From Candidatus Omnitrophota bacterium (GTDB lineage: Bacteria > Omnitrophota > Gorgyraeia > Pluralincolimonadales > Pluralincolimonadaceae): a DNA stretch of 64,000 bases. Below are positions 13,873-28,170 of the stretch, piece by piece. The stretch spans positions 13,943-77,942 of the forward strand of contig PLNR01000004.1 in the NCBI GenBank assembly GCA_003141835.1, given 5' to 3'. Below the pieces are notes generated by a model. That model made no database searches and had not been told where the DNA came from. It saw only the letters and a list, made by a program, of their open reading frames with translations. The position numbers were made by a program, and so were the translations under genes. Position 1 is the stretch's first letter. Every line of letters starts with the position of its first letter.

Positions 13873-14377
13873 TCTCGCCCATAACATTTACCGGCTGGAG
13901 GAACTCCATTTCGAGGAGCTTCCAACCGTCTTCTTCTTTAACGAGCTTCAGCCTGAACTTATCCTTCTCCCCTTCCAGCCCCTGCATTATAGTCTCTGAC
14001 GCGCCCCGGCCGGTGCGGCCGATTATCAGGGCGGTCACTTCCACGTCGGCCTCTGTCTTCGCCCCGTTCAGTTTTATATCCACGCTCTCAATATTTATGA
14101 ATACATCCTTATAATACGAGACAAAACCCTTCACGCCGAAGACGAGGGTCGAGCGGTCATTGCCGTATTTATCTTTATAATTAAAGGAGACCATATCCGA
14201 GATACCGAGGAGGTTCTTCTTCTCGATGCGGGCTTTGCCTGTCATGATGAATTTCTTGATGCGGGCCGGCTCGCCGCCGAATACGTCCTGGACCAAATTA
14301 TAACCGAAATAGGCGACGAGTGAGATAACGACCGCCCACAAATAGATCTTAATATACTTTCTTATTGGGAAGCTCAT
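13826..14377 (-). CDS. hypothetical membrane-anchored protein
   Basis: The N-terminal TM is IYLWAVVISLVAYFGY. The gene is convergent with ppiD and the 3' ends overlap by 47 nt. Confidence 0.4.
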   Translation of the reverse strand: MSFPIRKYIKIYLWAVVISLVAYFGYNLVQDVFGGEPARIKKFIMTGKARIEKKNLLGISDMVSFNYKDKYGNDRSTLVFGVKGFVSYYKDVFINIESVDIKLNGAKTEADVEVTALIIGRTGRGASETIMQGLEGEKDKFRLKLVKEEDGWKLLEMEFLQPVNVMGETIGGLPVPYSGRAAG

Positions 14378-14816
14378 TGAATTTCCTGAAAAGCCCGAGG
14401 CATTCTCTTCTCATGAAGGCAGGAACGAGTTTCACTTTGCTCTTTCCGAGGGATTTGAGCCGGCTGTCGGTTATCTCAAGCTCGTTAAAACCGATCCTTT
14501 TTGCGTCTCTTGTCGTGGTGCCGTAGATTATCTTATCGATACGGGCCCAGTGTATCGCGGAAAAACACATCGGGCACGGCTCTGTCGTCGAATAGATAAC
14601 GCAGCCTGAAAGGTCGAAGGTCTTTAATTTGCGCGAGGCGAGGCGGATGGCGTTTATCTCGGCATGGCAGGTCGCGTCATTTTTCAACACAGAATTGCGA
14701 GCGACCGCGATCACCCTGTCGCCTTTGACAATACAGGCGCCGAACGGCCCGCCGTCCATCCTCTTGAGATTCTTCCCGGCCTCTTTTATGGCCAGGAGCA
14801 TGAATTTTTTATTCAT
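14349..14816 (-). CDS. tadA: CDA-family nucleoside deaminase (tRNA adenosine deaminase TadA-like)
   Basis: The zinc motifs HAEINAI and PCPMC are present. Confidence 0.8.
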   Translation of the reverse strand: MNKKFMLLAIKEAGKNLKRMDGGPFGACIVKGDRVIAVARNSVLKNDATCHAEINAIRLASRKLKTFDLSGCVIYSTTEPCPMCFSAIHWARIDKIIYGTTTRDAKRIGFNELEITDSRLKSLGKSKVKLVPAFMRRECLGLFRKFNELPNKKVY

Positions 14817-15475
14817 CTGTTCTTCAACTCCCTTATCGCGTCCGCGGCAATCCAGCGGGCGGCCCTTGAGTCTATATTATATATCTCTTTGGCGGCTTTA
14901 AGCGCGGCTTTCCTGAGCTTCGGGTTGCGCTTGCCGATCTGGCGAAGGGCCCAGTTGACCGCCTTCCTTACATAATTGCGCTCGTCGGCAGATTCCCTCT
15001 TTATCACCGGGAAATAGACCATGAATGCCGCGTCTTTTGCTTTTTTATCATGGACTGCGAGGCAGGCCATCAGCGCGAAACCCGACCGCTTATAATATTC
15101 TTCTTTCTTCCTGCTCCACTCGTGGGTTTTTTTGTGAGCAACCGGCGTATAACAAAAAAGGTTAGAACATACCTGGTCGCAGATATCCCATGAATCAAAA
15201 TCCTTGGCCCACTCGTCCATCTCCTTGGGAGTGATTTTATCTGGATCGGCTACCATGCCGGCGAGGATGCGCGCTTCGTGGATACCTGACGCCCACAGTT
15301 TTTGGGCGAGAGCGTGGTCTTTGCCTGCTTGCCTCGCTATCTTCCTTAGGACGGGTATGGGCACACCGAGGGTGTTCTTGGAACTGATGCCGAAGCGGGC
15401 CATCCCCTCGATATTCTTGGGGCTAGAAAGGGATTTGAGTTTTTTTATTATTTCCGCGGCCGTATATCGGGGCAT
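14813..15475 (-). CDS. DNA alkylation repair enzyme (AlkD-like HEAT-repeat)
   Basis: The DNA_alkylation family pattern is present, including WDICDQV and HEAT-like repeats. Confidence 0.75.
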   Translation of the reverse strand: MPRYTAAEIIKKLKSLSSPKNIEGMARFGISSKNTLGVPIPVLRKIARQAGKDHALAQKLWASGIHEARILAGMVADPDKITPKEMDEWAKDFDSWDICDQVCSNLFCYTPVAHKKTHEWSRKKEEYYKRSGFALMACLAVHDKKAKDAAFMVYFPVIKRESADERNYVRKAVNWALRQIGKRNPKLRKAALKAAKEIYNIDSRAARWIAADAIRELKNR

Positions 15476-15478
15476 GGA

Positions 15479-15736
15479 TTATTTCTTTAGTGTGATCTCG
15501 ACGAGCTTCGCGGTGACGCCGGGGAGCTTGTTGAGCCTCCTGGCGAGCTCCTTCTTTTTCTTGCTGTCTCCGACGAGCTCGAGGATTATCAGGCCGACGT
15601 CCGAACACTGGTTGAGGACGCCGTCGTGGATGCCGAGGCGCGTCTTGACGAAGCAGCCGTATTTGGTGAGGACCTTCTGGAAATTTACCGCCGATCTGCT
15701 GCGGGTGCGTAAAAGCGCTATCAGTATGCTCTTCAT
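15479..15736 (-). CDS. TM1266-like ACT-fold small regulator
   Basis: At 85 aa, ILIALLRTRSRSAVNFQKVLTKYGCFVKTRLGIH...GLIILELVGD...LPGVTAKLV resembles the small putative Fe-only hydrogenase system regulator family. Confidence 0.45.
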   Translation of the reverse strand: MKSILIALLRTRSRSAVNFQKVLTKYGCFVKTRLGIHDGVLNQCSDVGLIILELVGDSKKKKELARRLNKLPGVTAKLVEITLKK

Positions 15737-15753
15737 ACCTGCCTCCTTTAAGA

Positions 15754-16848
15754 TTACCGGTCCCCGAAACAGGTCCCGACAGAACGCGCCGACTCTACGA
15801 GCGGATGGTTCTTCGGGACGAGCCTCTTGCCCTTCGCGACATCCCTAAGGGAGGCCTTGACGAACTCATTGTTCCTGACCGCGACCATATGGCCGAACGC
15901 GCCCTCATTCACGAGATCCATCGCCCCTGTCCCAAGCTGTGTGGCCAGGACCCTGTCGAAAGGCGTGGGCGAGCCTCCCCTCTGGAGATGGCCCATTATC
16001 ACGGCGCGCGTCTCTATGCCGCACGCTAACTTCTCTATCTGCCCGCCGAGGACAAAGCTTACGCCGCCGAGCCTGATCGATTCGAAGCTCTCCTTCACTA
16101 TCCTCTTTACGACGACATCCCCACCCTTCGGCTTCGCGCCCTCGGAGACCACGATTATGCTGAACCTCTTGCCTTTGCTGTGCCTCTCTTTTATCTTCCT
16201 GACAACCACGTTGATATCGTACGGGATCTCGGGGATGAGTATGATATCGCCGCCGCCGGCAACACCGGAGTGGAGCGCTATCCAGCCCGCGGTACGCCCC
16301 ATTACCTCTATTATCATCGCGCGGTGATGCGATTGCGCGGTCGTATGTATCCTGTCTATGCCTTCGGTCGCCACCCATACGGCCGTGTCGAAACCGAACG
16401 TTATATCGGTGCCGAGGATGTCATTATCTATCGTCTTCGGGACGCCGACGATCGGGATCCCATCCTCATAAAGCCTGTGAGCAATGCTGAGCGTCCCGTC
16501 TCCGCCGATAACCACCAGCGCGTCGGCTTTCAACCTCTTAAAATTATTTATGGCGCTCCTGTGGTAGTCCTTGAATGTGACCTTGCAGTTCTTGCCTTCT
16601 ATGGCGTAATGGTAAGGATTGGCAATATTGGAGGTGCCGAGTATCGTGCCGCCTAGGGCAATGATGCCCGAGACATCGTGATTCTCGAGCTTCCTGACCC
16701 TATTCCTTACGAGGCCTTCGTAACCATCCTCGATCCCGACGACTTCGCATCCTTCGCCCATGGCTTTTTTAGCCACGGCCCGTATGACCGCGTTCAGGCC
16801 CGGGCAGTCCCCGCCGCCGGTAAGTATCGCTATCCTTTTAGGTTTCAT
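15754..16848 (-). CDS. pfkA: 6-phosphofructokinase
   Basis: ILTGGGDCPGLNAVIRAV, IGGDGTL and PKTIDNDI are present. Confidence 0.9.
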   Translation of the reverse strand: MKPKRIAILTGGGDCPGLNAVIRAVAKKAMGEGCEVVGIEDGYEGLVRNRVRKLENHDVSGIIALGGTILGTSNIANPYHYAIEGKNCKVTFKDYHRSAINNFKRLKADALVVIGGDGTLSIAHRLYEDGIPIVGVPKTIDNDILGTDITFGFDTAVWVATEGIDRIHTTAQSHHRAMIIEVMGRTAGWIALHSGVAGGGDIILIPEIPYDINVVVRKIKERHSKGKRFSIIVVSEGAKPKGGDVVVKRIVKESFESIRLGGVSFVLGGQIEKLACGIETRAVIMGHLQRGGSPTPFDRVLATQLGTGAMDLVNEGAFGHMVAVRNNEFVKASLRDVAKGKRLVPKNHPLVESARSVGTCFGDR

Positions 16849-16914
16849 ATTAGCTCCCTCTGTTAGATTATAAGAGCGCCGTAATTAAAAAGCAACTTTA
16901 AAAAATCGGGCGGG

Positions 16915-16980
16915 TCCTGTCTGCCGAGCACCTCACCCCTTTTGCTGGTGCAAAAGGGGTGAGGGCTCCGTCGGCAGCCA
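16915..16980. terminator. long GC-rich hairpin (probable terminator downstream of dus)
   Basis: The core CCTCACCCCTTTT-GCTGGTGC-AAAAGGGGTGAGG is extended by flanking CTGCCGAGC/GCTCCGTCGGCAG complementarity. On the minus strand it is followed by a TTTTTT run. Confidence 0.4.
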
Positions 16981-16994
16981 CCTGCTGCAAATTT

Positions 16995-17948
16995 TTAAAT
17001 CTTGCTTATTATCTCCAACATTTCTTTTTTCGTTTCCGCCGCGCAAGCCGCTACACGTAATGGGCGGACGTTATTAAGTCCCTTGGTGTACCAGCAGAAG
17101 AACTTGCGGAATGCCGGGATCGCCCTTTTGGCGCCGAAACATTTGACAGAGGAGTTGAGATGGTATTTTATCGTCTTTACGACCGTTTCTTTTGAAGGCC
17201 TTTCCTGGATAGTTCCGTCTTCGAGGTAAGTTTCGACCTCACGGAAGAACCACGGGTTGCCCAGCGCGCCGCGGGCCAGGAGGATACCGTCGCAACCGGT
17301 CTCGTCGAACATCTTTTTCGCGAGCTGGGCGGATAATACGTCGCCGCTGCCGATGACCGGGACCTTCACCGCGTCCTTGACCGACTTTATGACCCCGTAA
17401 TCGACGCTGCCGCTGTATAACTGGTTCCTCGTCCTGCCATGGATGAATATCGCAGAGACACCGGCATCTTCGGCAACCACAGCGGTCTCCCTGGCGTTGA
17501 CCGAATTCTTTTCCCAGCCGGCGCGGATCTTTACAGTGACCGGCCACCTCGATTCCCTGACCATTATCTTAAGCAGGCGCTTGAGTTTGCCTAAGTCCTT
17601 GAGCAGGGCCGCGCCCTCACCCTTCGCGGTGACTTTCCTTTCAGGGCAGGCGGCGTTGAAATCGAGGATATCGAATTTGTATTTATGGAGTTTTTCTATC
17701 GCGCGGTTCAAATATTCGGGTTCGTTGCCTACGAGCTGGATGCCGAGAGGCCTGTCGCCTTTTGCCGACCCTAGCATCTCGAGCGCCTTGACGTTGCTGT
17801 AACTTAACGAGCGCGCGTTGACCATTTCGGTAAAAGCGAGCTCGGCGCCGAATTTGCGGTTGAGCATGCGGTACGGCAGGTCTGTTATGCCCGCCATCGG
17901 GGCGAGGATGAGGTTAGACTTTAATTTAAGCTTGCCGATCGTCAGCAT
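16995..17948 (-). CDS. dusB: tRNA-dihydrouridine synthase
   Basis: LAPMAGITDLPYR..., ...DFNAACP and the TIM-barrel FMN-binding pattern are present. Confidence 0.9.
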   Translation of the reverse strand: MLTIGKLKLKSNLILAPMAGITDLPYRMLNRKFGAELAFTEMVNARSLSYSNVKALEMLGSAKGDRPLGIQLVGNEPEYLNRAIEKLHKYKFDILDFNAACPERKVTAKGEGAALLKDLGKLKRLLKIMVRESRWPVTVKIRAGWEKNSVNARETAVVAEDAGVSAIFIHGRTRNQLYSGSVDYGVIKSVKDAVKVPVIGSGDVLSAQLAKKMFDETGCDGILLARGALGNPWFFREVETYLEDGTIQERPSKETVVKTIKYHLNSSVKCFGAKRAIPAFRKFFCWYTKGLNNVRPLRVAACAAETKKEMLEIISKI

Positions 17949-17954
17949 GAACTA

Positions 17955-18377
17955 TCAGTCGGAGATCTTTATGTATTGCTTGGGCGCAAAATTGTTTTCG
18001 AACGTCCAGACGCACGCGACGCATTCCGTGATGCGGAAGACCGCAAGCACGCCAAGGCCCAGCTCCTCGACGATAGGCTTCAGGAACGGCCTTGACGCGA
18101 CGATCGCCCTTTTGAGGTTATCATCGTACACTACTACGGCCTTTCCTTTCACCCTGACCTGGATGCCGCTCTTCTGGTTGAAGAAGCATGCCTCGACCAG
18201 CGGGTTGTCGCAGATCTGCTTGAACAGGTCTTTCGAATTGCCGGTATGGAATATTATGCCTTCGTCGTCGGCGCGGTACGCCATCATGCCCCTTACGTGC
18301 GGCTGGTTCCCTTCGGCAGTGGCGAGATTACAGGCGAGGTTCTCGTTGATGAATTTGATTATCTTTTCTTTTGTCAT
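17955..18377 (-). CDS. pyridoxamine 5'-phosphate oxidase-like FMN-binding protein
   Basis: A 140-aa protein with a PNPOx-like split barrel pattern (ACNLATAEGNQPHVRGM). Confidence 0.6.
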   Translation of the reverse strand: MTKEKIIKFINENLACNLATAEGNQPHVRGMMAYRADDEGIIFHTGNSKDLFKQICDNPLVEACFFNQKSGIQVRVKGKAVVVYDDNLKRAIVASRPFLKPIVEELGLGVLAVFRITECVACVWTFENNFAPKQYIKISD

Positions 18378-18986
18378 CTAAATATACCTCACGACGTATT
18401 CCAGTGATTTTTTCTTGGGGCCTTCCCCTTCCTTAAGCGGATAGCCTACGGGGATGACCGCCATGAACTCGCCTTTCGATTCCCCAAAGAATGAAAGGAC
18501 GTCATCCTTTATCAAGAACAATATCCCCAGCCAGACGCTGCCGAGGCCGAGGGATGTCGCGGCAATAAGCAGGTTCTCCGCAGCCGCGGCCGAGCTTTGT
18601 ATCTCCATCGTCCGGAAAAAATCCTTTGCCTTCTCTTTTTCTATCTTGAATAATTCGGTGCCGTGGTTTATCAGTATCCCCGTGTTCACGACCGCGATGA
18701 CGACCGGCGCGTTGCTGATGCTTCTTGCCGCCATGCGGAGTATCGAGGACGAGGGTTTTGGAAAATCCGAGGACTTGTCTACGACCAGCTGGGCAAGCTG
18801 GTGTTTCTTCTCGCCGCGGACTACGATAAAATGCCACGACTGCTGGTTATGCGCCGACGGCGCCTTATTCGCGGCATCGAGTATCACCTTGATAAGGGAA
18901 TCGCCTACCGGAGTATCCCGGAATTGCCGCACGCTGTGCCGGCGATGGACCACTTTTAGAGTATCGTTTGAATGGCAGTCTTCCAT
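18378..18986 (-). CDS. nitroreductase family protein
   Basis: RHSVRQF...APSAHNQQSW is present. I trimmed the ORF-track N-terminal extension to the internal Met at MEDCHSN. Confidence 0.7.
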   Translation of the reverse strand: MEDCHSNDTLKVVHRRHSVRQFRDTPVGDSLIKVILDAANKAPSAHNQQSWHFIVVRGEKKHQLAQLVVDKSSDFPKPSSSILRMAARSISNAPVVIAVVNTGILINHGTELFKIEKEKAKDFFRTMEIQSSAAAAENLLIAATSLGLGSVWLGILFLIKDDVLSFFGESKGEFMAVIPVGYPLKEGEGPKKKSLEYVVRYI

Positions 18987-19003
18987 ATTGGAACAATTAT
19001 ACT

Positions 19004-19480
19004 CTATGTATCCAGGAAGGCCAAGAGGGATTTTATTATGGTAAGCGGCGATGGCGGGCAGCCGGGAATATGCAGGTCTACAGGCAGGACCTCTTTTACC
19101 CCGCCGACGACGTAATATGAACCTTTGAACGCGCCTCCGTCGAGGGCGCAATCGCCAAGGGTTATGACGAATTTCGGCTCGGGCATCGCGTCATATGTCT
19201 TGCGAAGCGCCATCGCCATATTTTTGGAAACAGGACCGGTAACTAACAAGGCGTCTGCGTGACGGGGAGATGCCACAAAGTCGATGCCGAACCGCTGGAT
19301 ATCGTAAATGGGGTTAGTGGTAGCGATTATCTCGGATTCGCAGCCGTTGCATGAACCGGTGTCGACTTCCCTGATGTGGAAAGACCTCCCGAACTTCTTG
19401 AATATATGCGCTTTCAGGTCTTCGCCCAGTTTCTCGGTGACTACGCCCTTCATTATCCTGTTCTTCAAAATATTCTTCAT
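19004..19480 (-). CDS. NuoB-like [4Fe-4S] small subunit of a group-4-hydrogenase-like (Ehr/Hyf-type) complex
   Basis: GSCNGCE...GDCA...PGCPP supplies the four Cys for the proximal cluster. I chose the start at 19478-19480 (MKNILKN), which overlaps the large-subunit stop by 4 nt. Confidence 0.85.
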   Translation of the reverse strand: MKNILKNRIMKGVVTEKLGEDLKAHIFKKFGRSFHIREVDTGSCNGCESEIIATTNPIYDIQRFGIDFVASPRHADALLVTGPVSKNMAMALRKTYDAMPEPKFVITLGDCALDGGAFKGSYYVVGGVKEVLPVDLHIPGCPPSPLTIIKSLLAFLDT

Positions 19481-21006
19481 AGGTCGTTCCCCGGGTACGA
19501 AAGATCGAAGCTCTTGTTGCAAAGCGGGAAATCAGGGATTATGTTGCCGAGCACCGCGAAACACAGCCCCTGCCAGTTATGGAAAGACGGGTCGACTATC
19601 TTGCATCTCTCTATCCGGCCCGAGGCATCTGTTTTTATCCAAAAAAGGACCGGCCCCCTCCACCCCTCGGCATAACCGATGCCGCAGCCGGCTTCAGGCG
19701 CGGATTTTTTAGCGGCCGATATGTCGGCCGGGGCCATGATCCTAGCAAATTCCCTTATGAGCCGCACCGATTCCTCGATTTCCCTCAGGCGTACGTTCAG
19801 GCGCGCGAGGACATCGCCCTCTTCTTCTCTTACGAGCTTGAAATTCGCGGCAGAATAAACACCGGGGAATGTCTTCCGCAGATCCATCGGTATGCCTGAT
19901 GCGCGGGCCGCAAGCCCGACTATGCCGAGGTCAACGGCGGTCTTCTTCTTTAATATGCCTGTCTTATCGGCCCGGTCCATGAAAGATATGCTGGATAGAA
20001 GCATCCTTTTAAGTTCCCTGAAATCTTTCGATATCCCGTCGAGGAAATCCAGCAAAACTTTCCTCTCCGACCCGCCGAGGTCCCTGTTCACCCCGCCTAC
20101 GGTATTAACGCCTTTGAGATACCTGCTGCCGGATATCTTTTCGTTAAGGGCTAAGGTCTTTTCCTTTATTATCGAAGCAAATGCGTTCGGGAAAGTAAAG
20201 CCGACATCCACGGCCATGCCGCCAATATCGTTTGCGTGGTTATAGATCCTCTCGAGCTCGAGGTATATCGCCCTTATGTATTGCGCCCGTTCCGGGATGA
20301 GTATGCCGTATATCTTCTCGATCGCCTGGCAATATGCCGTGCTGTACGCGAACACGGAATCTCCGGAGACGCGCTCGGAAAAGCTTACCGCGTCATCCGA
20401 ACCGGCCGAGGGCATCTTTTCAAAAAGTTTTTCGACGCCACGATGGGTAAACCCAAGGCGCGCCTCGAGGTTTATCACCGGTTCCCCGGCCGCGCTGAAC
20501 CTGAAATGCCCGGGCCCGATTATCCCGGCATGGACAGGCCCGACCGGCACCTCGAATATCCCCTCGCCTTCGACTTTCTTGAACCTGTACGAGCCTTCCG
20601 CCTTTTGCGCCCGTTCAGGCGGGATAAAATCCTTGCGCAACGGGTAGAATCCCTCGAGCCATACCTCCTCGTGGAGATGGAGCCTCCTTAAGTCGGGATT
20701 GCCTTCCGGCTCGAGGCCGAACATCTCCTTCATCTCCCTCTCGAAAAGCGCGGCCGAGAAGACGTCTTTTGATATCGATTCAAACCGGGCCTGCCCTTCG
20801 GGCAATTGCATCCTTACTAAGACCCATCTTTTACCGGCCCAATCGAGGAAAGCGCAATAGACCGAGAATGCCTTTTTCCCGGGCCCCTCGTCGACCGCAA
20901 AATACATCATGACCGGGGAAGAAAGTTTCTTATGGAGTTCCAGGCATTTGCTCCTGAATTCCTCCGGCTTTACGTCTATATATATTTCATCCCTGTATTC
21001 CATCAT
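19477..21006 (-). CDS. NuoC-NuoD fused large subunit homologous to HycE/HyfG but lacking the NiFe-binding cysteines (Ehr-type)
   Basis: The protein aligns to the HycE core (…ERAQYIRAIYLELERI…), but the N-terminal RxCGxC is RVSGDSVFAY and the C-terminal DPCxxC is DPSFHNWQ. Confidence 0.85.
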   Translation of the reverse strand: MMEYRDEIYIDVKPEEFRSKCLELHKKLSSPVMMYFAVDEGPGKKAFSVYCAFLDWAGKRWVLVRMQLPEGQARFESISKDVFSAALFEREMKEMFGLEPEGNPDLRRLHLHEEVWLEGFYPLRKDFIPPERAQKAEGSYRFKKVEGEGIFEVPVGPVHAGIIGPGHFRFSAAGEPVINLEARLGFTHRGVEKLFEKMPSAGSDDAVSFSERVSGDSVFAYSTAYCQAIEKIYGILIPERAQYIRAIYLELERIYNHANDIGGMAVDVGFTFPNAFASIIKEKTLALNEKISGSRYLKGVNTVGGVNRDLGGSERKVLLDFLDGISKDFRELKRMLLSSISFMDRADKTGILKKKTAVDLGIVGLAARASGIPMDLRKTFPGVYSAANFKLVREEEGDVLARLNVRLREIEESVRLIREFARIMAPADISAAKKSAPEAGCGIGYAEGWRGPVLFWIKTDASGRIERCKIVDPSFHNWQGLCFAVLGNIIPDFPLCNKSFDLSYPGNDL

Positions 21007-22403
21007 GCCCCTCTTATTATCCCGATCGCCGAAGTCATGAGCCCGCTTAGAAGCGCGGGTAATTTAAACCCAAGCGTGCATGTAAAGACCAGCAAGAATA
21101 TGAACGCGATCTTCCCGCTTAACGGCTCTCCCTCTGCAGCCACGTCGGACGGCTTCTTCCCGAACACGACCCTGCTGATGTGGTATATGACCGCGCCGAA
21201 TATTATCGCCAGAAAAAGCAGGAAGAGCGCCGACTGGAGATAAAGCCCCTGCCCAAAACCCGAGATGAGTATCATCAGCTCGCTGAAGAATACCGAGAAC
21301 GGCGGCGAGCCGGTCAGGGCGAACGCGCCTATTATCAGCATGACGCCGGTAAAAGGCATGGCGTTTACCACTCCCCTCATTGCATTCATGTCGCTCGTCT
21401 TGTATTTTTTCACGGCGTTCCCTGCGCTAAAGAACATGAGCGATTTTGTGACCGCGTGGTTAAAGACGTGAAAGAGCGCGCCGAAAAGCCCAAGCGCCCC
21501 GCCCATGCCAAGGCCGAAAGTTATGACGCCGATATGCTCGACGCTGCTGTACGCAAACAGCCGCTTGATATCTTTCTGGACGACGACGAAAGCCGCGGAT
21601 ACGCCGAGTGAAAGCAACCCGAAGAAGACCAGCAGCCTGTCCGAATAGGACGTGCCTATGCAGATATTTATTATTGAAGTGAACCTGATGATCGCGTAGA
21701 TGGCCGTCTTAAGGAGAACGCCTGACAACAGCGCGCTTATCGGAGCGGGCGCCTGGCTGTGCGCGTCCGGAAGCCAGGTATGCATGGGCGCAAGGCCTGC
21801 CTTGGTCCCGTATCCGACGAGGATAAAGAGGAACGCGACCTTTAATACATTCGGGTCGAGCTTTCCGGCGACAGAGGCCATCTCGGTCCAGTTGAGGCTC
21901 GTCACGCCGCCGTCGCGCGAGGCGGTGTAATAGAATAATATCGTCCCTAAAAGCGCCAGAGTGATGCCGACCGAGCAGATTATTATATATTTCCATGCCG
22001 CCTCGATCGACTTCTTGCTGTTATAGAAACCTACCAAAAACGCCGAGACGAGGGTCGTCATCTCTATCGCGACCCAGAGCATGCCGAGGTTATTTACGAC
22101 GGTCACGAAATACATCGTGAACGCGAAGAGGTTAAAAAGGCCGTAATAGGCCCTCGCCTTCTTCTCTTTTATCGTCCCGGATTCCGCGTCTTTCGCTATG
22201 TACCCTATCGAGTAAAGCGCAGCGGCGAAATTCACGACCGATATCGTCAGGATAAAGAACGCGCTCAAGGCATCGATATAGAAGAAATCGAAACCGCTGA
22301 CCGGGCCTTCCCTTAGCACATACGAGGCAAGGAATACCGAGGCGGCCGATAGCGCAAGGTGCAACACCGCATTGATCACTCCCAACGCCTTTATCCTGTT
22401 CAT
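21003..22403 (-). CDS. NuoN/HyfF-like antiporter-type membrane subunit
   Basis: A 466-aa polytopic protein with the Mrp/NuoN family pattern (WLPDAHSQAP). Confidence 0.8.
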   Translation of the reverse strand: MNRIKALGVINAVLHLALSAASVFLASYVLREGPVSGFDFFYIDALSAFFILTISVVNFAAALYSIGYIAKDAESGTIKEKKARAYYGLFNLFAFTMYFVTVVNNLGMLWVAIEMTTLVSAFLVGFYNSKKSIEAAWKYIIICSVGITLALLGTILFYYTASRDGGVTSLNWTEMASVAGKLDPNVLKVAFLFILVGYGTKAGLAPMHTWLPDAHSQAPAPISALLSGVLLKTAIYAIIRFTSIINICIGTSYSDRLLVFFGLLSLGVSAAFVVVQKDIKRLFAYSSVEHIGVITFGLGMGGALGLFGALFHVFNHAVTKSLMFFSAGNAVKKYKTSDMNAMRGVVNAMPFTGVMLIIGAFALTGSPPFSVFFSELMILISGFGQGLYLQSALFLLFLAIIFGAVIYHISRVVFGKKPSDVAAEGEPLSGKIAFIFLLVFTCTLGFKLPALLSGLMTSAIGIIRGA

Positions 22404-22406
22404 CAG

Positions 22407-23027
22407 TTAACCTTTCAGCTCGGTGAGCTTGTCCACGTCTATGTGCGTGAACAGGCTGTTTATCTTATAAACGAAAATACCGAGTATCATTACCGCGAGG
22501 AATACGTCGAAGAATATCGCTATCTCGACTATGAACGGCATCCCGCCGGATACGCTCGCCGCGGCAAGGAACATCCCGTTCTCCATGACCAGGAGGCCTA
22601 CTATCTGGGCAAGCGCCTTCATCCTGAATATCATTATAAATACGCCGATGAGCGTTATCGAAATGGATACGAAGAACGCGGGGATCCCGGTGATCATCCC
22701 GGTGAATGCGTACGCCAGGTAAGCCAGCACTATCGCCGCAAAGATCGAGACGGTCGGGTTCGCGGAAAGCCCCAGGTCCTCTCCCACCTTTATCCTTTTT
22801 ACCACCCTGTGCAGCATGCGCGGGATCAATATGACCTTTATCAGGAAGAGAAGCGCGGCGACTACATATAATTCCGTCGAGCCCGACCTGTATGCCAGCA
22901 CGAACATCAGGAGGAAAAGGAAGAACGACTGGGCGCGGAAACCGTTTATCAACGCGGTCAGGCGTTTTGCCGCGACCATCGCGAAAGCCATCATGAGTAT
23001 TAAAAACAAAAATATATTTATAGGCAT
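22407..23027 (-). CDS. HyfE-like small membrane subunit (NuoK-related)
   Basis: A 206-aa protein with about 6 TM. Its size and position match hyfE. Confidence 0.65.
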   Translation of the reverse strand: MPINIFLFLILMMAFAMVAAKRLTALINGFRAQSFFLFLLMFVLAYRSGSTELYVVAALLFLIKVILIPRMLHRVVKRIKVGEDLGLSANPTVSIFAAIVLAYLAYAFTGMITGIPAFFVSISITLIGVFIMIFRMKALAQIVGLLVMENGMFLAAASVSGGMPFIVEIAIFFDVFLAVMILGIFVYKINSLFTHIDVDKLTELKG

Positions 23028-23028
23028 A

Positions 23029-23904
23029 TCAGTACCCCGCCGCGGAAACGATGACCGCCATTATGGAGATGACGAGCGCGAAGCTCAGGAGGTCCACGGC
23101 CCTGAAGAGCCTCATCTTCGCGATCGATACCTCGAGTAAACTCACCGCTGCGATCACCGCCGCCATCTTGAGGGCGAAATCACCCCAGGGAATGACGACT
23201 GCGGCGATCAAGGAAAAGAACAATACCTGCTTTATGTGCGAGGCTAATTCTATCAGGGCGAGCGACTTCCCTGAATATTCCAGGACCATCGCCTCGTGTA
23301 TCATCGTCAATTCCAGGTGCGTCTCCTGGTTATCTACGGGAATACGCGAGGTCTCGGCTATGGTCACGACAAAAAGCGAGAGCGACGCGATTATTGATGA
23401 AAGCTTTAATCCTGCGGGCGCGCTTACGGCCGCGAGGTTCGTCGAACCGGCGTTAAGCGAGACGGCGAAGACCGACAACAAAGCGACCGGCTCGACAAAG
23501 GTCGATATGAACATCTCCCTGGAGGAACCCATACCGCCGAACGCGCTCCCCGCGTCGAGCCCGGCGAGGGCAACAAAGAACCTGCCCAGGGCCAATATAA
23601 ATATGATGGCAAGGAAATCGCCCATATTGGAGAACGATAGCGTCGAGGCAAATACCGGTACCAGCGATAACGCGCACACTGATGAGGCGAGGACGACAAA
23701 CGGCGCAGCCTTGAATATCCACGACGTAGTATCCGAGACCACTTCTTCCTTTCCGAAGAGTTTGGCAAGATTATAATACGGCTGGAATACGCTCGCGCCT
23801 TTGCGCATCCTGATATTGTTCTTTATCTTCCTTATTATGCCGCTCACGAGGGGCGATACCGCGATCAGCAGCAATATCTGTATGAGTATTAGCGCGGTTT
23901 TCAT
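23029..23904 (-). CDS. HycD/HyfC/NuoH-like membrane subunit
   Basis: A 291-aa protein with the NuoH family pattern (VSPLVSGIIRKIKNNIRMRKG, RLFRAVDL). Confidence 0.85.
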   Translation of the reverse strand: MKTALILIQILLLIAVSPLVSGIIRKIKNNIRMRKGASVFQPYYNLAKLFGKEEVVSDTTSWIFKAAPFVVLASSVCALSLVPVFASTLSFSNMGDFLAIIFILALGRFFVALAGLDAGSAFGGMGSSREMFISTFVEPVALLSVFAVSLNAGSTNLAAVSAPAGLKLSSIIASLSLFVVTIAETSRIPVDNQETHLELTMIHEAMVLEYSGKSLALIELASHIKQVLFFSLIAAVVIPWGDFALKMAAVIAAVSLLEVSIAKMRLFRAVDLLSFALVISIMAVIVSAAGY

Positions 23905-23905
23905 G

Positions 23906-25732
23906 TCAGGACCTCCCCACGAATATTATGAGCGCCAGTATCGTGATAAAGATATAGGCGATATAGACGTGTATGCTGCCGGGCTGGATCTTCCTCATCG
24001 CCTGCGCGGTCTTGATTATCACGTTAAGCGTTGGTTCGTAGATATAGCGCCTGAAGACCGGCGTCGTGAAGACCTCGTATTTGAACGACTTGACGTGGTA
24101 AAAAGACTCCCTTATCTTCTCGGTCTTGGTATAAGGCATCAAAAAGAAACTGAACGCGATACGGAACGGCTTTGAGAAGGCTGTGGCCGTATACTCTGTC
24201 CTCGAGTCGAGGTTATAATATCCGCAGCCCCATGTCTTGCCCTCGCAAACCCTCTTCTTGCCGGTACCGGCAAGAGCCCATGCCGCGCCAAAGACGAATA
24301 TGAGCGCAAGGGCTATGAGCGGTACAGAAAGATTTGTGCCGGACTGCGGCGCAAGCGTGAAATTATTAAGGGTAAAGTTCATTCCGACGGTGTTGATGCC
24401 TGTCGCGCAGCCTGAAACAACGACTAATATCTTGATCATAAGCGAGGCTGCAAGCCCCAGGATAATTGTAAGTACGGACATGGCAACAAGGGCGGACTTC
24501 ATCGAGAGCGATACCTCTTTCGCCTCCCTCGCGTGCGCGCTCCTCGGCATCGCCAGGAAAGTGACGCCGAAGGCCTTCACAAAACACGATGCCGCAAGCC
24601 CGCCTGTCAGGGCAAGCATCGCCGCGCAGAGGCTCAAAAATATCTTATAACTTCCCGCTGTGGCGAGCGCGCCCAGGAAGAACGCCTGGAGCGTAAGCCA
24701 TTCGCTCACGAAACCGTTAAACGGCGGCAGGGCCGATATCGCCATCGCGCCGACAAGGAACGTCGCCGCTGTCCACGGCATCAGTTTTATCAGGCCGCCG
24801 AGGTTTTCCATATTGCGCGTCCCGGTCGCCTTATAGACCGCGCCGGCGCCCAGGAACAAAAGCCCCTTAAATACCGCGTGATTGATAAGATGATACAACC
24901 CGGCGCAGAGCGCGAATACCGCCAGGACCGGATTGCCCATTTTGATAAAGACCATTGAGGCACCGACGCCGAGCAGTATTATGCCGATATTCTCGACGCT
25001 GTGATAGGCCAGAAGTTTCTTAAGGTCGTGTTCCATCAACGCATAAATGACGCCTACCAGGCATGAGACTACCGCAAGGACCAGCACAAGATTGCCCCAC
25101 CATAGCGAATTGACGCCGAGGATGAAAATTATGAACCGCACCATGCCATAGATGGCCGTCTTTATCATTACGCCGGACATTATGCTTGAAATATGGCTGG
25201 GCGCCTGCGGATGGGCGTAAGGAAGCCAGATGTGGAGCGGCACGATCCCCGCCTTTGTGCCGAACCCTACCAACAAGAAGATAAAGACGATGTTTTTGAC
25301 GTTATCAGGCATGAGCAGGCAGGCCTGCTTAAATGCGGAAAAATCGAATGACCCGGCGTATTTGTATATTATCAGGAATGCCGCGGTGATAAACGCGGTC
25401 CCGATGTGGGTCATGACTATGTAGATGGTGCCGGCCCGGACGGATTTTTCATGCTTATGGTCAAAGACTACGAGAAAATACGAAAGCAGCGACATCAGCT
25501 CCCATGCAACGAGGAAAAGGAAGGCGTTGCCGACCGTGACTACGAGCACCATAGACAGGACGAACGCGGTCATAAGCGACCACGCGAGGATCTTCTCCCC
25601 TCGTGAATGGCCTTCCTTAAGGTAGCCTATCGAATAGACCGCCGACGGCACCGAAACGAGCGCTATTACCGCCAGAAAAAACAAAGACAGCGGGTCAAAT
25701 AATAGTGAAAAACCTATTTTAAGATATTCCAT
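23906..25732 (-). CDS. HyfB/HycC/NuoL-like antiporter-type membrane subunit
   Basis: A 608-aa protein with the WLPYAHPQAPSHISS motif. It is the first gene of the six-gene module. Confidence 0.85.
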   Translation of the reverse strand: MEYLKIGFSLLFDPLSLFFLAVIALVSVPSAVYSIGYLKEGHSRGEKILAWSLMTAFVLSMVLVVTVGNAFLFLVAWELMSLLSYFLVVFDHKHEKSVRAGTIYIVMTHIGTAFITAAFLIIYKYAGSFDFSAFKQACLLMPDNVKNIVFIFLLVGFGTKAGIVPLHIWLPYAHPQAPSHISSIMSGVMIKTAIYGMVRFIIFILGVNSLWWGNLVLVLAVVSCLVGVIYALMEHDLKKLLAYHSVENIGIILLGVGASMVFIKMGNPVLAVFALCAGLYHLINHAVFKGLLFLGAGAVYKATGTRNMENLGGLIKLMPWTAATFLVGAMAISALPPFNGFVSEWLTLQAFFLGALATAGSYKIFLSLCAAMLALTGGLAASCFVKAFGVTFLAMPRSAHAREAKEVSLSMKSALVAMSVLTIILGLAASLMIKILVVVSGCATGINTVGMNFTLNNFTLAPQSGTNLSVPLIALALIFVFGAAWALAGTGKKRVCEGKTWGCGYYNLDSRTEYTATAFSKPFRIAFSFFLMPYTKTEKIRESFYHVKSFKYEVFTTPVFRRYIYEPTLNVIIKTAQAMRKIQPGSIHVYIAYIFITILALIIFVGRS

Positions 25733-25828
25733 TTACATTTTTTGGTTAGTTAGAGGTAATGCTGGCAGGAACTGGTGTTCATCGCTGCAGTATTACTTGA
25801 CTGTTGTGAAAGTATTTTACGGCAAAAA

Positions 25829-25879
25829 CGGAAAGTTGTCAAGGCGACTGGGACAGTCCAGTGGAGTGAAATGTTATGC
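25829..25879 (-). repeat. attC-like site, truncated/degenerate (terminal cassette)
   Basis: The right arm TCCAGTGGAGTGAAAT-GTTATGC is conserved and the left arm is reduced to ACTGG/CCAGT. It starts 2 nt after the stop of the 59-aa ORF. Confidence 0.4.
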
Positions 25880-25881
25880 GA

Positions 25882-26512
25882 TTATTCTTTATTTTTCTTA
25901 GATATGCTATCTTTAAATCTCTTAATTTTATTTGGAGCAACATATACATATTCAAGCATTGCAATTAGGAAATCATCTATGGCCTTTATTTCCGTTTGGT
26001 CAAAATTTACTTCGATTTTATGAGCGCCTATATTTCCTATAAATCTTAAACTTTCTGCCATTTCAACTATTGTATTAGGAATTAAATCTCTCTGATAAAT
26101 TGGCTATTTGTTCTTTTAAATTATTTCCTTTTGCCTTTTGATCTTTGCAGAGTAATTCCATAGATCTTCTAATCAATACCGCAAAAGCACTTGGTGATAT
26201 TTTTTCTACCTTTTTTGCTTCCTCGTAATTTCTTCTAATTTCTTCAGGTATCACTCCATCAAGTTTACGGGGAGCAGGATAAAGCAGCTTTGCCTTCTCA
26301 AGATTACCTGGATCTTCCGAAGCTTCCCAATCTCCAAATAGGCAAATGCCTTTACATGTTTTGCATTCCGTCAAGTAATAATACGTTTCCATGTCTCCTA
26401 GAGATGAGCCATCGAAATCGTATATTTTTACGCTGGAAGTAACTGTTGTTATTATAACGTGTGGCGTTTTATTGCCGCAATGGCTACAAATTAAGATTGC
26501 TTCTTTGTTCAT
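25882..26512 (-). pseudogene. zinc-ribbon + DUF4145-like protein, disrupted by a +1 frameshift (ORFs 26075..26512 and 25882..26061)
   Basis: The 145-aa ORF (CSHCGNK...CKTCKG, then ...AFAVLIRRSMELLCKDQKAKGNNLKEQIANLSERFNS*) is followed 13 nt later, in the +1 frame, by a 59-aa ORF MAESLRFIGNIGAHKIEV...LEYVYV carrying the DUF4145 GNxxAH motif. The upstream read in the +1 frame is ...IPNTIVEMAESLRF. Confidence 0.5.
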
Positions 26513-26528
26513 AATTATTATATCCTAC

Positions 26529-26603
26529 GCATAACGCTTGGACTCAGCGGCCAAGCCCTGCTAAAAGATACCTGGCGTGGTCCGCTGGAGTGAAATGTTA
26601 TGG
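26529..26603 (-). repeat. attC-like site (75 bp)
   Basis: GCATAAC-GCTTG-GACTCAGCGGC-[29 nt]-TCCGCTGGAGTGAAAT-GTTATGG, with a bulged G in the right arm. Confidence 0.6.
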
Positions 26604-26612
26604 GTTTATATC

Positions 26613-27116
26613 TTATTCTCCCTTTACATCTCCGTTTTTATACAGAATAAGGCCTTTTTTATATTTAAGACCTTTGTTGTGTTGCGTGCAAGTAATAATA
26701 ACTGTATCCGAAGGCGAATCTGGCTTAGGCTGTGTATATGTATATTGCATATTCGTAACCGGACAGTTAATGATATCTTTGTCATTGGCGGGAATGTATT
26801 TGGGAATTAGATCCGTTAACTGAGCAGGCCATTTGCCATTATTTTCTTCGCTATGCAATTTACATACTATTCCAATCTCTATTAAATTGTGTCTACATGT
26901 TATAAGTTTACGAATGAATGGGGGATGGCCTCCCGTTGGAGTAAAAAGCGCCAATATGATTAAAATACTTAAAATAGCCCATATAAAATGTAAAATTGGT
27001 TGTTTTTTTATCTTCTCGCGTGAATTTGCAGAGAAAATGCAGCCAATGAACCTAGATGCTGCACTAAGCGATACGATTAGTAATATGATTGCTAAGATTA
27101 ATGTTAAAATTCCCAT
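26613..27116 (-). CDS. cassette-encoded hypothetical membrane protein (2 TM + Cys-containing C-terminal domain)
   Basis: A 167-aa protein with TM helices MGILTLILAIILLIVSLSAA and ILHFIWAILSILIILALF. It has no recognisable family. Confidence 0.5.
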   Translation of the reverse strand: MGILTLILAIILLIVSLSAASRFIGCIFSANSREKIKKQPILHFIWAILSILIILALFTPTGGHPPFIRKLITCRHNLIEIGIVCKLHSEENNGKWPAQLTDLIPKYIPANDKDIINCPVTNMQYTYTQPKPDSPSDTVIITCTQHNKGLKYKKGLILYKNGDVKGE

Positions 27117-27140
27117 TTATGCCTTTTATTATTTTTCATC

Positions 27141-27215
27141 CCATAACGTTTGAACTCAGCGGCTGGCACCATAAAACAGATGGCCGGGACAGTCCGCTGG
27201 AGTGAATTGTTCGGC
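27141..27215 (-). repeat. attC-like site (75 bp)
   Basis: CCATAAC-GTTTG-AACTCAGCGGC-[29 nt]-TCCGCTGGAGTGAATT-GTTCGGC. Confidence 0.6.
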
Positions 27216-27218
27216 TCT

Positions 27219-27602
27219 TTATTTGATTTCTTTTAGCCACCTTACAGCCTCTTCTTTCAATTCTGGTTTATCCTCTTTGTGGCTAAAAACCATACCGTTT
27301 TCTTTCCTAAAAGCTTCGACCTCAATGCGTGTTTGTTTTTGATCGACATAAATCAACTTGATGTGAATCTCTTCTACCCATGTTTTTCCATAGCAGTTCC
27401 AGTATGTGTAGGACCATCCGCCTTTCTCCCGCTTGGCTTCGAAAAGACCATCAAATGAGACTTTTGGGATTTGCGATTGAACCTGTTTCGCGACGTCATC
27501 TATATAATTGGATACCGTCCACGTCTCAAGCGCGGCACATACAATTGATGCCCCGCTGACAACTATAAGCAGCGCTATAACTATTGATTTCATTATTTTC
27601 AT
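27219..27602 (-). CDS. cassette-encoded hypothetical secreted protein
   Basis: A 127-aa protein with a signal peptide (MKIMKSIVIALLIVVSGASIVCAA). Confidence 0.5.
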   Translation of the reverse strand: MKIMKSIVIALLIVVSGASIVCAALETWTVSNYIDDVAKQVQSQIPKVSFDGLFEAKREKGGWSYTYWNCYGKTWVEEIHIKLIYVDQKQTRIEVEAFRKENGMVFSHKEDKPELKEEAVRWLKEIK

Positions 27603-27608
27603 CTCTTC

Positions 27609-27683
27609 GCCGAACGATTGAACTCAGCGGCGGCGATATGAAAACAGGATGCCAACGCCATCCGCTGGAGTGAAATGTTAGGT
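27609..27683 (-). repeat. attC-like site (75 bp)
   Basis: GCCGAAC-GATTG-AACTCAGCGGC-[29 nt]-TCCGCTGGAGTGAAAT-GTTAGGT. Its left core GCCGAAC is the complement of the neighbouring site's GTTCGGC. Confidence 0.6.
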
Positions 27684-27687
27684 TCCA

Positions 27688-27993
27688 TTATTTTGTTTCC
27701 TGGGTGGAAAGAACTCGCATAAGCGCTTCGAATCCTGCCTCGCCAACTTCCTTCCCGGCCTTAATGCTTTCATGATATATAAATATTGCCGAAATAAGAT
27801 ACAAACTCGCTATTAAAATTATGATTTTGGGCATTTTAGCATACCGAACCCAAAGATATGTTCCTAAAATACTAGAAAAAGAAAGAGCAACTATCATAGG
27901 AATTTGTCCAAACTCGAAATATGCATAAATTCCTAGGAAAAAATTTACTAAAACCGTACCAAGAATTATAGATAACCTTATTATCCAGATCAT
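27688..27993 (-). CDS. cassette-encoded hypothetical small membrane protein (3 TM)
   Basis: A 101-aa protein with three hydrophobic helices, and the first cassette after the putative attI side. Its start lies 20 nt from the ACCTAAC core at 28014-28020. Confidence 0.45.
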   Translation of the reverse strand: MIWIIRLSIILGTVLVNFFLGIYAYFEFGQIPMIVALSFSSILGTYLWVRYAKMPKIIILIASLYLISAIFIYHESIKAGKEVGEAGFEALMRVLSTQETK

Positions 27994-28013
27994 TTTCGTT
28001 ATTTAATTTTTCA

Positions 28014-28170
28014 ACCTAACATATAATATACGAATTCGTAGTTTATTGGTTGTCGTACTGCCCTGTTATCATTATAAGGCCCAAATTGCTTATTGCAAGC
28101 TCAAATAAATTCGCAAATGACCTGTAATGGCATGAAATACGAATTCGTAATTTGCGGGTTTTTGTACTTT
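28014..28170. promoter_or_regulatory. putative attI-like / cassette promoter region with duplicated perfect palindrome TACGAATTCGTA (28029-28040 and 28138-28149)
   Basis: The ACCTAAC core (GTTAGGT on the minus strand) is complementary to the R'' box of the first cassette's attC. Two identical 12-bp palindromes lie 109 bp apart in an AT-rich spacer. Confidence 0.35.

Follow-up and report, generated by a model that had tools for sequence, protein, structure and literature searches.

A minimal Ehr-type complex, related to group 4 hydrogenases but without the ligands of a [NiFe] site, in Candidatus Omnitrophota

What does a hydrogenase-like membrane complex do once it has lost the metal site of a hydrogenase? 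This question is raised by six genes in a 64,000-nt stretch of a Candidatus Omnitrophota contig (PLNR01000004.1, positions 13,943-77,942), which we call the window and within which all coordinates are counted. The six genes lie on the minus strand at 19004-25732, and they almost certainly encode a complex of the Ehr ("energy-converting hydrogenase-related") type. Judging from the sequences, we have little doubt that the products would form a six-subunit membrane complex that descends from group 4 [NiFe] hydrogenases (of the formate-hydrogenlyase or Hyf-like kind, and closest to group 4f) and that neither produces nor consumes H2 any longer. Among the uncharacterized relatives of complex I, Ehr complexes rank with the most widespread, and the question of their substrate is two decades old. 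The kind is already known and named, and the locus in the window is a further member in a minimal form. It sharpens the question about Ehr without answering it.

The six genes and the lost [NiFe] site

The six open reading frames (ORFs) are intact, with almost no spacing between them, and they appear in the order ehrA-B-C-D-L-S (Table 1). Their products resemble NuoL/HyfB, NuoH/HycD, HyfE, HyfF, a large subunit in which NuoC and NuoD are fused as in HycE, and the small subunit NuoB/HycG. With the exception of the HyfE-like gene, the E-values for family assignment range from 1e-32 to 1e-195 (Pfam/NCBIfam). The genes are translationally coupled, and starts overlap in the last three: 4-nt ATGA overlaps join ehrD to ehrL (21003-21006) and ehrL to ehrS (19477-19480). 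As listed, the ehrS ORF began at a TTG (19522) and was over-extended. The likely start is the ATG at 19480, which overlaps the stop of ehrL; the resulting protein of 158 amino acids agrees with how the gene is called in the closest relative. In G+C content (0.50-0.54), the operon does not differ from the genome around it.

The large subunit, EhrL, contains the Pfam domains Complex1_30kDa and Complex1_49kDa and matches HycE (7z0s_E, E = 1.4e-62), MbhL (7e-41), and Nqo4 (7e-40). Its AlphaFold model has a predicted local distance difference test score (pLDDT) of 90.7 and a predicted template modeling score (pTM) of 0.93, and the top Foldseek match of the model is HycE (template modeling score 0.94), with E. 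coli NuoCD at about 0.86. Where group 4 [NiFe] hydrogenases have the motifs RxCGxCxxxH and (D/L)(P/C)CxxCxx(R/H), the homologous positions of EhrL read RVSGDSVFAY and DLSYPGNDL. In the N-terminal motif (L1), a HMMER alignment matches RVSGDSVFAY column for column with RVCGICGFAH of HycE, so that both Cys are replaced by Ser (S214 and S217) and the His by Tyr. The C-terminal motif (L2) corresponds to the last 11 residues of EhrL, SFDLSYPGNDL, as compared to SLDPCYSCTDR in HycE. In the longer alignment (KSFDLSYPGNDL, ending at the stop codon, against GSLDPCYSCTDR of HycE), the positions of the two Cys are occupied by S503 and G506. The C-terminus also aligns without a gap with the closest relatives that do contain Cys, which are of group 4f (INKSFELCYSCTDR), and again EhrL has no Cys at the ligand columns. 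Because all four Cys columns are substituted (S214, S217, S503, and G506), EhrL cannot ligate a [NiFe] centre.

These substitutions are shared by the 120 closest homologues. The third Cys position is Ser or Thr in every one of them, about 11 have a single Cys at the first position (for example RVCGDAAFAH), one Cys occurs elsewhere, and the full set of four ligands is found in none. Two other features are missing as well. The Glu of the GPxHAGxIEPGH loop, which is kept in nearly all relatives with or without the Cys, is replaced by G164 in EhrL, and 119 of the 120 have Gly, Pro, or Ala at this position. Where Nqo4 has His38 and Tyr87 as quinone ligands, EhrL has Ile163 and Gly215 (positions counted from the Nqo4 alignment). 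As for what is conserved, 38 columns are invariant in an alignment of 48 sequences with a mean identity of 39%. Those at the former metal site include N497, S499, Y504, G506, and D508, while G215 and D216 are nearly invariant. We had considered the conservation of the C-terminal tail as a strong argument for a new site, and we dropped it, as the NKSF.L.Y..D frame of the tail is common to Ehr and to the group-4f relatives with four Cys. By this comparison, the frame is an inheritance from hydrogenase ancestors. The changes that are specific to Ehr are Ser214, Asp216, Ser/Thr217, Ser503, and Gly506 only.

The small subunit, EhrS, has the Pfam domain Oxidored_q6 (5.8e-32) and matches HycG (4e-38) and MbhJ (5e-35). 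In alignments to both proteins, Cys44, Cys47, Cys111, and Cys141 occupy the columns of the four [4Fe-4S] ligands.

The charged residues by which complex I moves ions are retained in both antiporter-like subunits and in the NuoH-like subunit. EhrA matches Pfam Proton_antipo_M (1.5e-54) and NCBIfam hydrogenase 4 subunit B (8e-195, at 649 bits against a cut-off of 667), and its best relative of solved structure is HycC (7z0s_C, 4e-75). It carries Glu78 in transmembrane helix 5, Lys160 in helix 7, Lys191 in helix 8, and Lys289 in helix 12. Of 65 related loci, 64-65 keep Glu78, Lys160, and Lys289, and 58 keep Lys191. EhrD matches Proton_antipo_M (1.2e-54) and hydrogenase 4 subunit F (4e-154), and its Glu114, Lys201, and Lys320 are invariant in all 60 loci compared. 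Thus the helix 5 Glu, helix 7 Lys, and helix 12 Lys are invariant, or nearly so, in both of these subunits across 60-65 related loci. EhrB matches Pfam NADHdh (1.4e-37) and, among solved structures, HycD best (7z0s_D, 4e-39); R187, D191, E204, and E209 in its loop are kept in 64-65 of 65 loci. EhrC is assigned from matches below the cut-offs, namely NCBIfam HyfE (3.6e-25, 89 bits, curated cut-off 136) and Pfam Oxidored_q2, the NuoK family (5.7e-5, 23 bits, cut-off 26), and from its position, which is conserved in nearly all related cassettes. A search of the PDB with EhrC gave a weak match to MbsG alone (6u8y_G, E = 0.33).

An earlier note on this DNA (the original prediction) had reached much of this. 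It gave the gene order HyfB-HycD-HyfE-HyfF-large-small with exactly the limits that we find, along with the 4-nt overlaps between the last three genes. It also described an N-terminal RVSGDSVFAY in which both Cys are replaced, a large subunit unable to bind a NiFe centre, and a NuoB-like small subunit with all four cluster Cys, and each of these stands after alignment to HycE or to HycG and MbhJ. Its identification of an Ehr complex agrees with our sequence comparison and rough tree (below), in which the sequences nearest to EhrL belong to the group without Cys that the literature calls Ehr and that probably lies next to group 4f. Its statement that HycF/NuoI and hyp genes are missing holds for the 55 ORFs of the window, all of which we scanned against Pfam. 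It was right that both C-terminal Cys are lost, and wrong about where: it placed the motif at DPSFHNWQ (about residues 472-479), which aligns with AATYANW of HycE and is not a ligand segment, while the true site is at the extreme C-terminus. It had named Cys that are present but shifted as the outcome that would count against it. The C-terminal alignment was indeed shifted, yet there is no Cys at the true position.

Relatives and the loss of the electron relay

We scored more than 8000 homologues, of which the best 120 are at least 59% identical. The named members of the 120 are almost all from Candidatus Omnitrophota, with one from Endomicrobiales, and their public names are "NADH-quinone oxidoreductase subunit C" or "Ni,Fe-hydrogenase III large subunit." An exact-sequence look-up of the window protein returned no record. 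An exhaustive search of representatives at 50% identity gave 941 proteins below 1e-30. Most of the best 150 of these lack the Cys, with R[IV]SGD[ST]...H and NKSFNLSY[SA]GNDL, while a minority have four Cys, with RICG[VA]C...H and INKSFELCY[SA]C.DR, and are of the group-4f type. HycE-type sequences are found among the best 150 only at around 33% identity. In a rough neighbor-joining tree (rooted on HycE-type sequences and without support values), the sequences with four Cys form a basal grade, and all of the Cys-less sequences form one derived cluster. Our query lies within this cluster, on a sub-branch marked by the replacement of the Glu by Gly. The named members of the query's subclade are mostly Omnitrophota, and its members are 59-90% identical to each other and at most 46% identical to other representatives. 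On this evidence, the closest, mostly Omnitrophota relatives are a minimal Ehr subtype that has neither the HycF domain (see below) nor the loop Glu.

Ehr as a whole is found in more than 15 bacterial and archaeal phyla. The hosts of the cassette among the matches listed by our genome scan include Omnitrophota, Saganbacteria, Nitrospirota, Acidobacteriota, Verrucomicrobiota, and Rokubacteria, as well as members of the Candidate Phyla Radiation (CPR), Bacillota, Actinomycetota, Chloroflexota, Thermoproteota, and Methanomassiliicoccales. Most loci, more than 60, share the order A-B-C-D-L-S, and the order S-A-B-C-D-L is seen in Actinomycetota, Rokubacteria, CPR, and Chloroflexota. A relative without the Cys, in which the genes are ordered as in our locus, is found in the Nitrospira metagenome-assembled genome (MAG) QZM_B4_2_Bin429, which is one of the 11 MAGs from a study that reported an Ehr "close to group 4f but lacking the CxxC motifs" in 7 of them (PMC10284858). 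We found no paper describing Ehr in Omnitrophota within the open literature that we searched. So far as that literature goes, the excision of HycF with a stub left behind, the loss of the loop Glu, and the existence of relatives without a cluster may be undescribed features of the subtype.

Some of these loci are unusual in their arrangement. Two Nitrospirota genomes have two full Ehr cassettes in tandem on the same strand (L017, at 5030-12100 and 12460-19826, and L068), with large subunits about 40% identical to the query. In a Saganbacteria MAG (L009, 6017-10054), the cassette seems to be truncated: two SNF2-family helicase genes are followed by a 247-residue ORF and then by D, L, and S, and the contig upstream has neither a NuoL-like nor a NuoH-like gene. 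The large subunit of this cassette, at 57% identity to the query, likewise has Gly in place of the Glu.

The small subunit of the window locus is a short form. In most related cassettes this subunit has 236-354 amino acids, as compared to 158 in EhrS, and the first 100 residues or so match HycF while the remainder match HycG. For instance, the small subunit of one relative (L035, ORF at 11537-12325) matches residues 1-103 of 7z0s_F at E = 3.5e-15 and 7z0s_G at 1.9e-42, and other such fusions are found at L032, L020, L025, L021, and L084. The fusion is the rule in most Ehr and group-4f cassettes outside of Omnitrophota and Nitrospirota, and its ferredoxin motifs may be two, one, or degenerate. 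Some have two [4Fe-4S] motifs, and others have the CP of the first and the CxxCxxC of the second, for one cluster. In a few archaeal and clostridial loci (L011, L024, L026, and L045), the ferredoxin part is a separate gene of about 110 codons between L and S. This variation suggests that the electron-input relay has eroded to different degrees in different lineages. Like its closest relatives and the Nitrospirota forms, EhrS begins with MKNILKNRIMKGVVT, which aligns with a HycF-type N-terminus (MFNIIKKVIK...), and then passes straight into the HycG domain. In other words, the ferredoxin domain of the relatives is deleted between residue 15 of EhrS and the HycG domain. Because a stub of about 15 residues remains, we conclude that the NuoI/HycF function was cut out of a fused ancestor and is not merely encoded elsewhere. 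Since the relay was deleted secondarily, either electrons must enter a minimal Ehr straight at the NuoB-type cluster or the complex must do without them.

The Cys that bind the cluster of the small subunit are kept in about 74 of 79 loci. The five cassettes that lack the ligands (L018, L036, L023, L054, and L058; small-subunit genes at about 4200-4830 or 2244-2672, depending on the locus) come from Daviesbacteria and Saccharibacteria (both CPR), Thermoleophilia, Bdellovibrionales, and one unclassified MAG. The four Cys are replaced by Thr/Asp/Ser, Cys/Glu, Asp/Gly, and Asp, so at most one is kept: three ligands are replaced in four of these loci (T-C-D-D or D-C-G-D) and all four in L058 (S-E-G-D). 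The charged residues of their antiporter-like and NuoH-like subunits fall in columns that are invariant in the comparison of 60-65 loci. If these alignments are right, the five cassettes would carry no redox cofactor at all.

What might the complex do?

The explanation that we favor overall, with a little more belief than doubt, is an Ehr-type complex that acts as a redox-driven, single-cluster ion pump. The mechanism taken by itself, a redox pump driven by ferredoxin, is tentative; it is the likeliest of those that we consider, and we would stop just short of betting on it. The ancestral Ehr was presumably a redox enzyme fed through a HycF-type relay, as most relatives have one or two [4Fe-4S] motifs in the HycF-like domain that feeds the small subunit. 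In the minimal form, the donor would deliver single electrons at low potential and would most plausibly be a soluble ferredoxin. It would reduce the single [4Fe-4S] cluster of EhrS directly, docking on the face that the absent HycF domain leaves open. In complex I, the NuoB-type cluster is about 10 Å from the nearest NuoI cluster, so direct reduction of EhrS by a small ferredoxin is physically reasonable. The electron would then pass to an acceptor in the remodeled pocket at the interface of the large, small, and NuoH-like subunits, and the change in charge would drive the translocation of H+ or Na+ via EhrB, C, D, and A. Protons are excluded as the acceptor. The leading candidates might be a membrane quinone or a small molecule that is reduced at the cluster itself, as proposed for MBS. 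MBS is a precedent from another [NiFe]-less relative, in which catalysis is proposed to take place at the proximal cluster, and the MBS structure (6u8y) matches both our large and small subunits. As for quinones, menaquinone synthesis is present in some orders of Omnitrophota (PMC10066038).

The genome context gives no hint of a partner. Among the 55 ORFs of the window, the Pfam scan identified no hyp, endopeptidase, HycF/NuoI, HycB, formate dehydrogenase, NuoEF, or ferredoxin genes. In the syntenic relative L001, which is 83% identical and of which we covered 21.5 kb, there are no hyp or HycF/NuoI genes within 10 kb of the operon. The more distant Omnitrophota loci L003 and L004 (60-63% identity) keep the six genes and have unrelated flanks. 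All-against-all clustering of the flanking ORFs of 80 loci found no recurrent partner gene, and the commonest families (ABC ATPases in 9 loci, ArsR-like regulators in 8, and sensor kinases in 7) are all generic. The six ehr genes are a self-contained unit.

Several observations weigh against a redox-driven pump. No redox partner gene that could point to a donor or an acceptor is found in the window, in L001, L003, or L004, or recurrently in the 80 loci. The domain that would normally deliver the electrons is deleted from EhrS, EhrL has neither the canonical quinone ligands nor the conserved Glu, and the single cluster must serve for electron entry and exit alike. The five related cassettes without cluster ligands still keep the membrane residues, which implies that the family can persist without a redox cofactor. 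And no Ehr is known to have shown an activity in experiments.

Some of these points are what one would expect from the main rival, a transporter that does not depend on redox chemistry. In this case, the complex would exchange cations and protons in the manner of Mrp, or move ions by another kind of secondary transport, with L and S as a cap or gate on the NuoH-like channel and with the [4Fe-4S] cluster as a structural element or a redox sensor. Redox functions have been lost by degrees (the [NiFe] site in all Ehr, HycF in Omnitrophota and Nitrospirota, the Glu in Omnitrophota, and the cluster Cys in CPR and a few others), and despite this the residues of the ion path are invariant. There is also no conserved partner in cis, and both antiporter-like subunits have matches in Mrp (subunits A and D). 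We nevertheless think that a transporter is unlikely, because the window locus and about 74 of 79 relatives keep all four of the cluster Cys and the locus has no subunits of the MrpE/F/G type. Furthermore, Mrp antiporters work without a NuoB/NuoD module, so there would have to be another reason to keep a peripheral arm of 670 residues, which is under strong constraint. A link to formate seems to us improbable rather than unlikely. It has been proposed that a formate dehydrogenase docks on the Ehr module and feeds electrons to it (PMC6349859), and such an enzyme could be encoded elsewhere. The complex descends from formate hydrogenlyase-like ancestors, its subunits matching those of Hyc and Hyf best, and a formate link has also been suggested for Geobacter, where the Ehr subunits are most abundant on formate (PMC7894505). 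But the HycF-type relay that this connection needs is deleted from EhrS, and there is no gene for formate dehydrogenase, HycB, or a NuoEF-like protein in the window, within 10 kb in L001, L003, or L004, or recurrently in the 80 loci.

Public annotations of the homologues imply something else, namely that the genes make up a true NADH:quinone oxidoreductase (respiratory complex I) or part of it. PF00346, PF00329, PF01058, PF00146, and PF00361 all match, and so does the fold of NuoCD (template modeling score 0.86). We rejected this reading, which we consider very improbable, on account of the missing subunits and quinone ligands. The complex has just six genes, and neither the operon nor the rest of the window encodes NuoE, F, G, I, A, or J. 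A separate NuoK is missing too, and its nearest counterpart is the weakly NuoK-like half of EhrC. The columns of His38 and Tyr87 hold Ile and Gly, the equivalog models for NuoD and NuoB all score far below their cut-offs, and every subunit is closer to its formate hydrogenlyase or Hyf counterpart than to Nuo. It is hardly credible that the locus encodes a true [NiFe] hydrogenase whose ligands were missed by misalignment, or that it is a decaying cluster of pseudogenes. The original prediction did misalign the C-terminal motif, at DPSFHNWQ, and there is a faint match to PF00374. At the correct columns, however, which were fixed by a gapless alignment to relatives with four Cys, there is no Cys, and the substitutions are essentially fixed in the closest 120 homologues, none of which has four ligands. 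Decay is ruled out by the six intact ORFs, the coupled starts, and the invariant key residues. Along with the more than 8000 homologues and the conservation of the cluster Cys and of the large subunit, these speak for a machine that still functions. We rejected both of these ideas as well.

Finally, the Omnitrophota-type Ehr could be a complex-I-like ion translocator that has no electron-transfer chain. A single exposed [4Fe-4S] cluster might be reduced and re-oxidized at one site, or there might be no net redox reaction, and the conserved pocket of Ser and Asp that replaces the [NiFe] site would be a trigger that binds a ligand or a proton. The family would then be a natural deletion series that has lost first the [NiFe] site, then HycF, then the Glu, and finally, in CPR, the last cluster. 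We doubt that this is so. If it is true, then the series shows which of the coupling parts of complex I can work without catalysis. In any case, forms that have lost redox parts by degrees beside an invariant ion path are natural cases in which to test the coupling between redox chemistry and ion pumping.

There is also a practical consequence for genome annotation. A large survey of Omnitrophota scored "respiratory complex I" by the presence of PF00346 (PMC10066038), and EhrL matches this marker at 1e-38. So some of the complex I calls in that survey, and some of the "simplified respiratory chains" inferred for the phylum, may rest on Ehr.

Neighboring genes and known systems

Table 1. Features of the ehr locus and of the rest of the window
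Feature	Position	Strand	Evidence or remark
ehrA, antiporter-type membrane subunit like NuoL/HyfB/HycC, 608 residues	23906..25732	minus	Pfam, NCBIfam, solved-structure match HycC
ehrB, membrane subunit like NuoH/HycD, 291 residues	23029..23904	minus	Pfam NADHdh, solved-structure match HycD
ehrC, HyfE-like membrane subunit, 206 residues, C-terminal half NuoK/MrpC-like	22407..23027	minus	Sub-cut-off NCBIfam/Pfam matches, conserved position
ehrD, antiporter-type membrane subunit like HyfF/NuoN, 466 residues	21003..22403	minus	Pfam, NCBIfam
ehrL, fused NuoC + NuoD/HycE-like large subunit without [NiFe] ligands, 509 residues	19477..21006	minus	Pfam, HycE alignment, AlphaFold/Foldseek
ehrS, NuoB/HycG-like small subunit, 158 residues, four Cys for one [4Fe-4S], 15-residue remnant of HycF N-terminus	19004..19480	minus	Pfam, HycG/MbhJ alignment
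Promoter-like site, sigma-70-type, TTGACA-17-TAAAAT, about 80 nt upstream of ehrA	25814..25842	minus	11 of 12 positions, best match in region
Nitroreductase, 3' of operon	18378-18985		18 nt after ehrS, own promoter-like site
PNPOx-family FMN-binding protein, 3' of operon	17955-18377		Pfam scan
Insert of 2.3 kb between gltD and ehr promoter	25850-28170		38% G+C, absent from L001
ORFs of the insert	26075-26512, 26613-27116, 27219-27602, 27688-27993	minus	
Repeats of the insert	26525-26605, 27137-27217, 27605-27685		Half-site at 25856-25880
37-nt repeat, two copies	28023-28059, 28132-28168		Between gltD end and insert
Carbohydrate-active proteins, large, secreted or surface	34266-37529, 46143-48269, 55840-58707		
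Glycoside hydrolase genes around these proteins	38427-45055, 60540-63957		

On its 3' side, the operon is followed immediately by a nitroreductase gene, which the original prediction did not mention, then by a gene for a PNPOx-family FMN-binding protein, and farther on by Dus and PFK. The original prediction had a "TM1266-like small regulator" and PFK upstream of the operon; the supposed regulator is the PNPOx-family protein, and both genes lie 3' of the operon. On the 5' side are the promoter-like site, a low-GC insert, and then gltD and gltB. We suppose that the site acts as the promoter of the operon: it is conserved in L001, although L001 lacks the insert. Apart from this insert, L001 has the same order (gltB-gltD-ehrABCDLS-nitroreductase-PNPOx-Dus-PFK).

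We considered whether any of these neighbors might be a partner. The nitroreductase and the PNPOx-like flavoprotein were rejected as soluble partners because their association is conserved in L001 only and is absent from L003, L004, and the other loci, and because the nitroreductase gene has a promoter-like site of its own. GltD, as an NADPH module for electron input, was rejected because the association is absent beyond L001 and because a full-length GltB adjoins it, which makes gltD and gltB an ordinary glutamate synthase pair.

The insert resembles an array of gene cassettes of the integron type, with sites similar to attC. Each of its repeats is an imperfect palindrome of about 80 nt, of the form ..ATAAC..CAGCGG..(variable)..CCGCTG..GTTAT.., and one follows each ORF. 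As single-stranded DNA, one copy would form a bulged hairpin (z = -3.3), and the other two cannot be distinguished from shuffled sequences. There is no integrase in the window, and an Rfam scan of the insert gave no match. The first ORF of the insert contains DUF4145 and matches the PADLOC model PD-T7-4 at 1e-11. The 37-nt repeat beside the insert contains the palindrome ATACGAATTCGTA. Elsewhere, the window is rich in carbohydrate-active proteins and surface modules, including GH2 with Big_7 and SLH-like Glucodextran_C, GH113, DUF5060, and one PEP-CTERM protein, and it contains a 1087-residue ORF with no match in Pfam.

How does the locus compare with known systems? The name and concept of Ehr come from Geobacter GSU0739-45, with a NuoL-like EhrA, a HyfE-like EhrC, EhrL, and EhrS; all of the subunits were detected by proteomics (PMC7894505). 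Saganbacteria and Margulisbacteria were the basis for the formate dehydrogenase hypothesis (PMC6349859), and versions of Ehr in CPR have also been noted (PMC7304191). The function of Ehr is given as unknown throughout (PMC7894505, PMC10284858, PMC6349859, and PMC7304191). The Ehr of Geobacter sulfurreducens (by its published description), Nitrospira, Saganbacteria, Margulisbacteria, and CPR are like the window locus in having the NuoL-like EhrA, the HyfE-like EhrC, a large subunit without CxxC motifs, and the small subunit, and Nitrospira and many other phyla have the same A-B-C-D-L-S order. The window locus differs from them in that it lacks the Glu of the GPxHAGxIEPGH loop and has a short small subunit without the HycF domain. 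The closest relatives of the window protein that contain the Cys are the putative group 4f [NiFe] hydrogenases (Ehf), at around 37-43% identity. Loci of this group in Thermincola, Desulfotomaculum, Selenomonas, and others have the same six-gene order, and their INKSF.L.Y..D tail and IIEPGH loop resemble those of the window's family. Group 4f keeps RxCGxC, LCYxCxDR, and a small subunit in which HycF and HycG are fused, whereas the window locus has lost the four Cys, the Glu, and the HycF domain.

As for Mrp antiporters, EhrA and EhrD do match MrpA and MrpD, but the window locus has homologues of NuoB, NuoD, and NuoH and none of MrpE/F/G. MBS/Mbx of Pyrococcus furiosus (6U8Y) and complex I are, like the window complex, descendants of group 4 that have no [NiFe] site and that combine a NuoB-type cluster with an antiporter-like arm. 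Unlike it, they keep a NuoI-type subunit with two clusters, and they have many more subunits and defined acceptors (polysulfide and quinone, respectively). The E. coli formate hydrogenlyase (Hyc, 7Z0S) provides the best matches of solved structure for A, B, L, and S (HycC, HycD, HycE, and HycG), and hydrogenase 4 (Hyf) provides the best NCBIfam models (HyfB, HyfE, and HyfF). As compared to Hyc and Hyf, the window locus lacks the [NiFe] site, HycF, HycB, the FdhF module, and the maturation genes; as compared to Hyc, it has an additional antiporter-like subunit and a HyfE-like subunit. The window protein is much closer to Hyc and Hyf than to MBS/Mbx or complex I.

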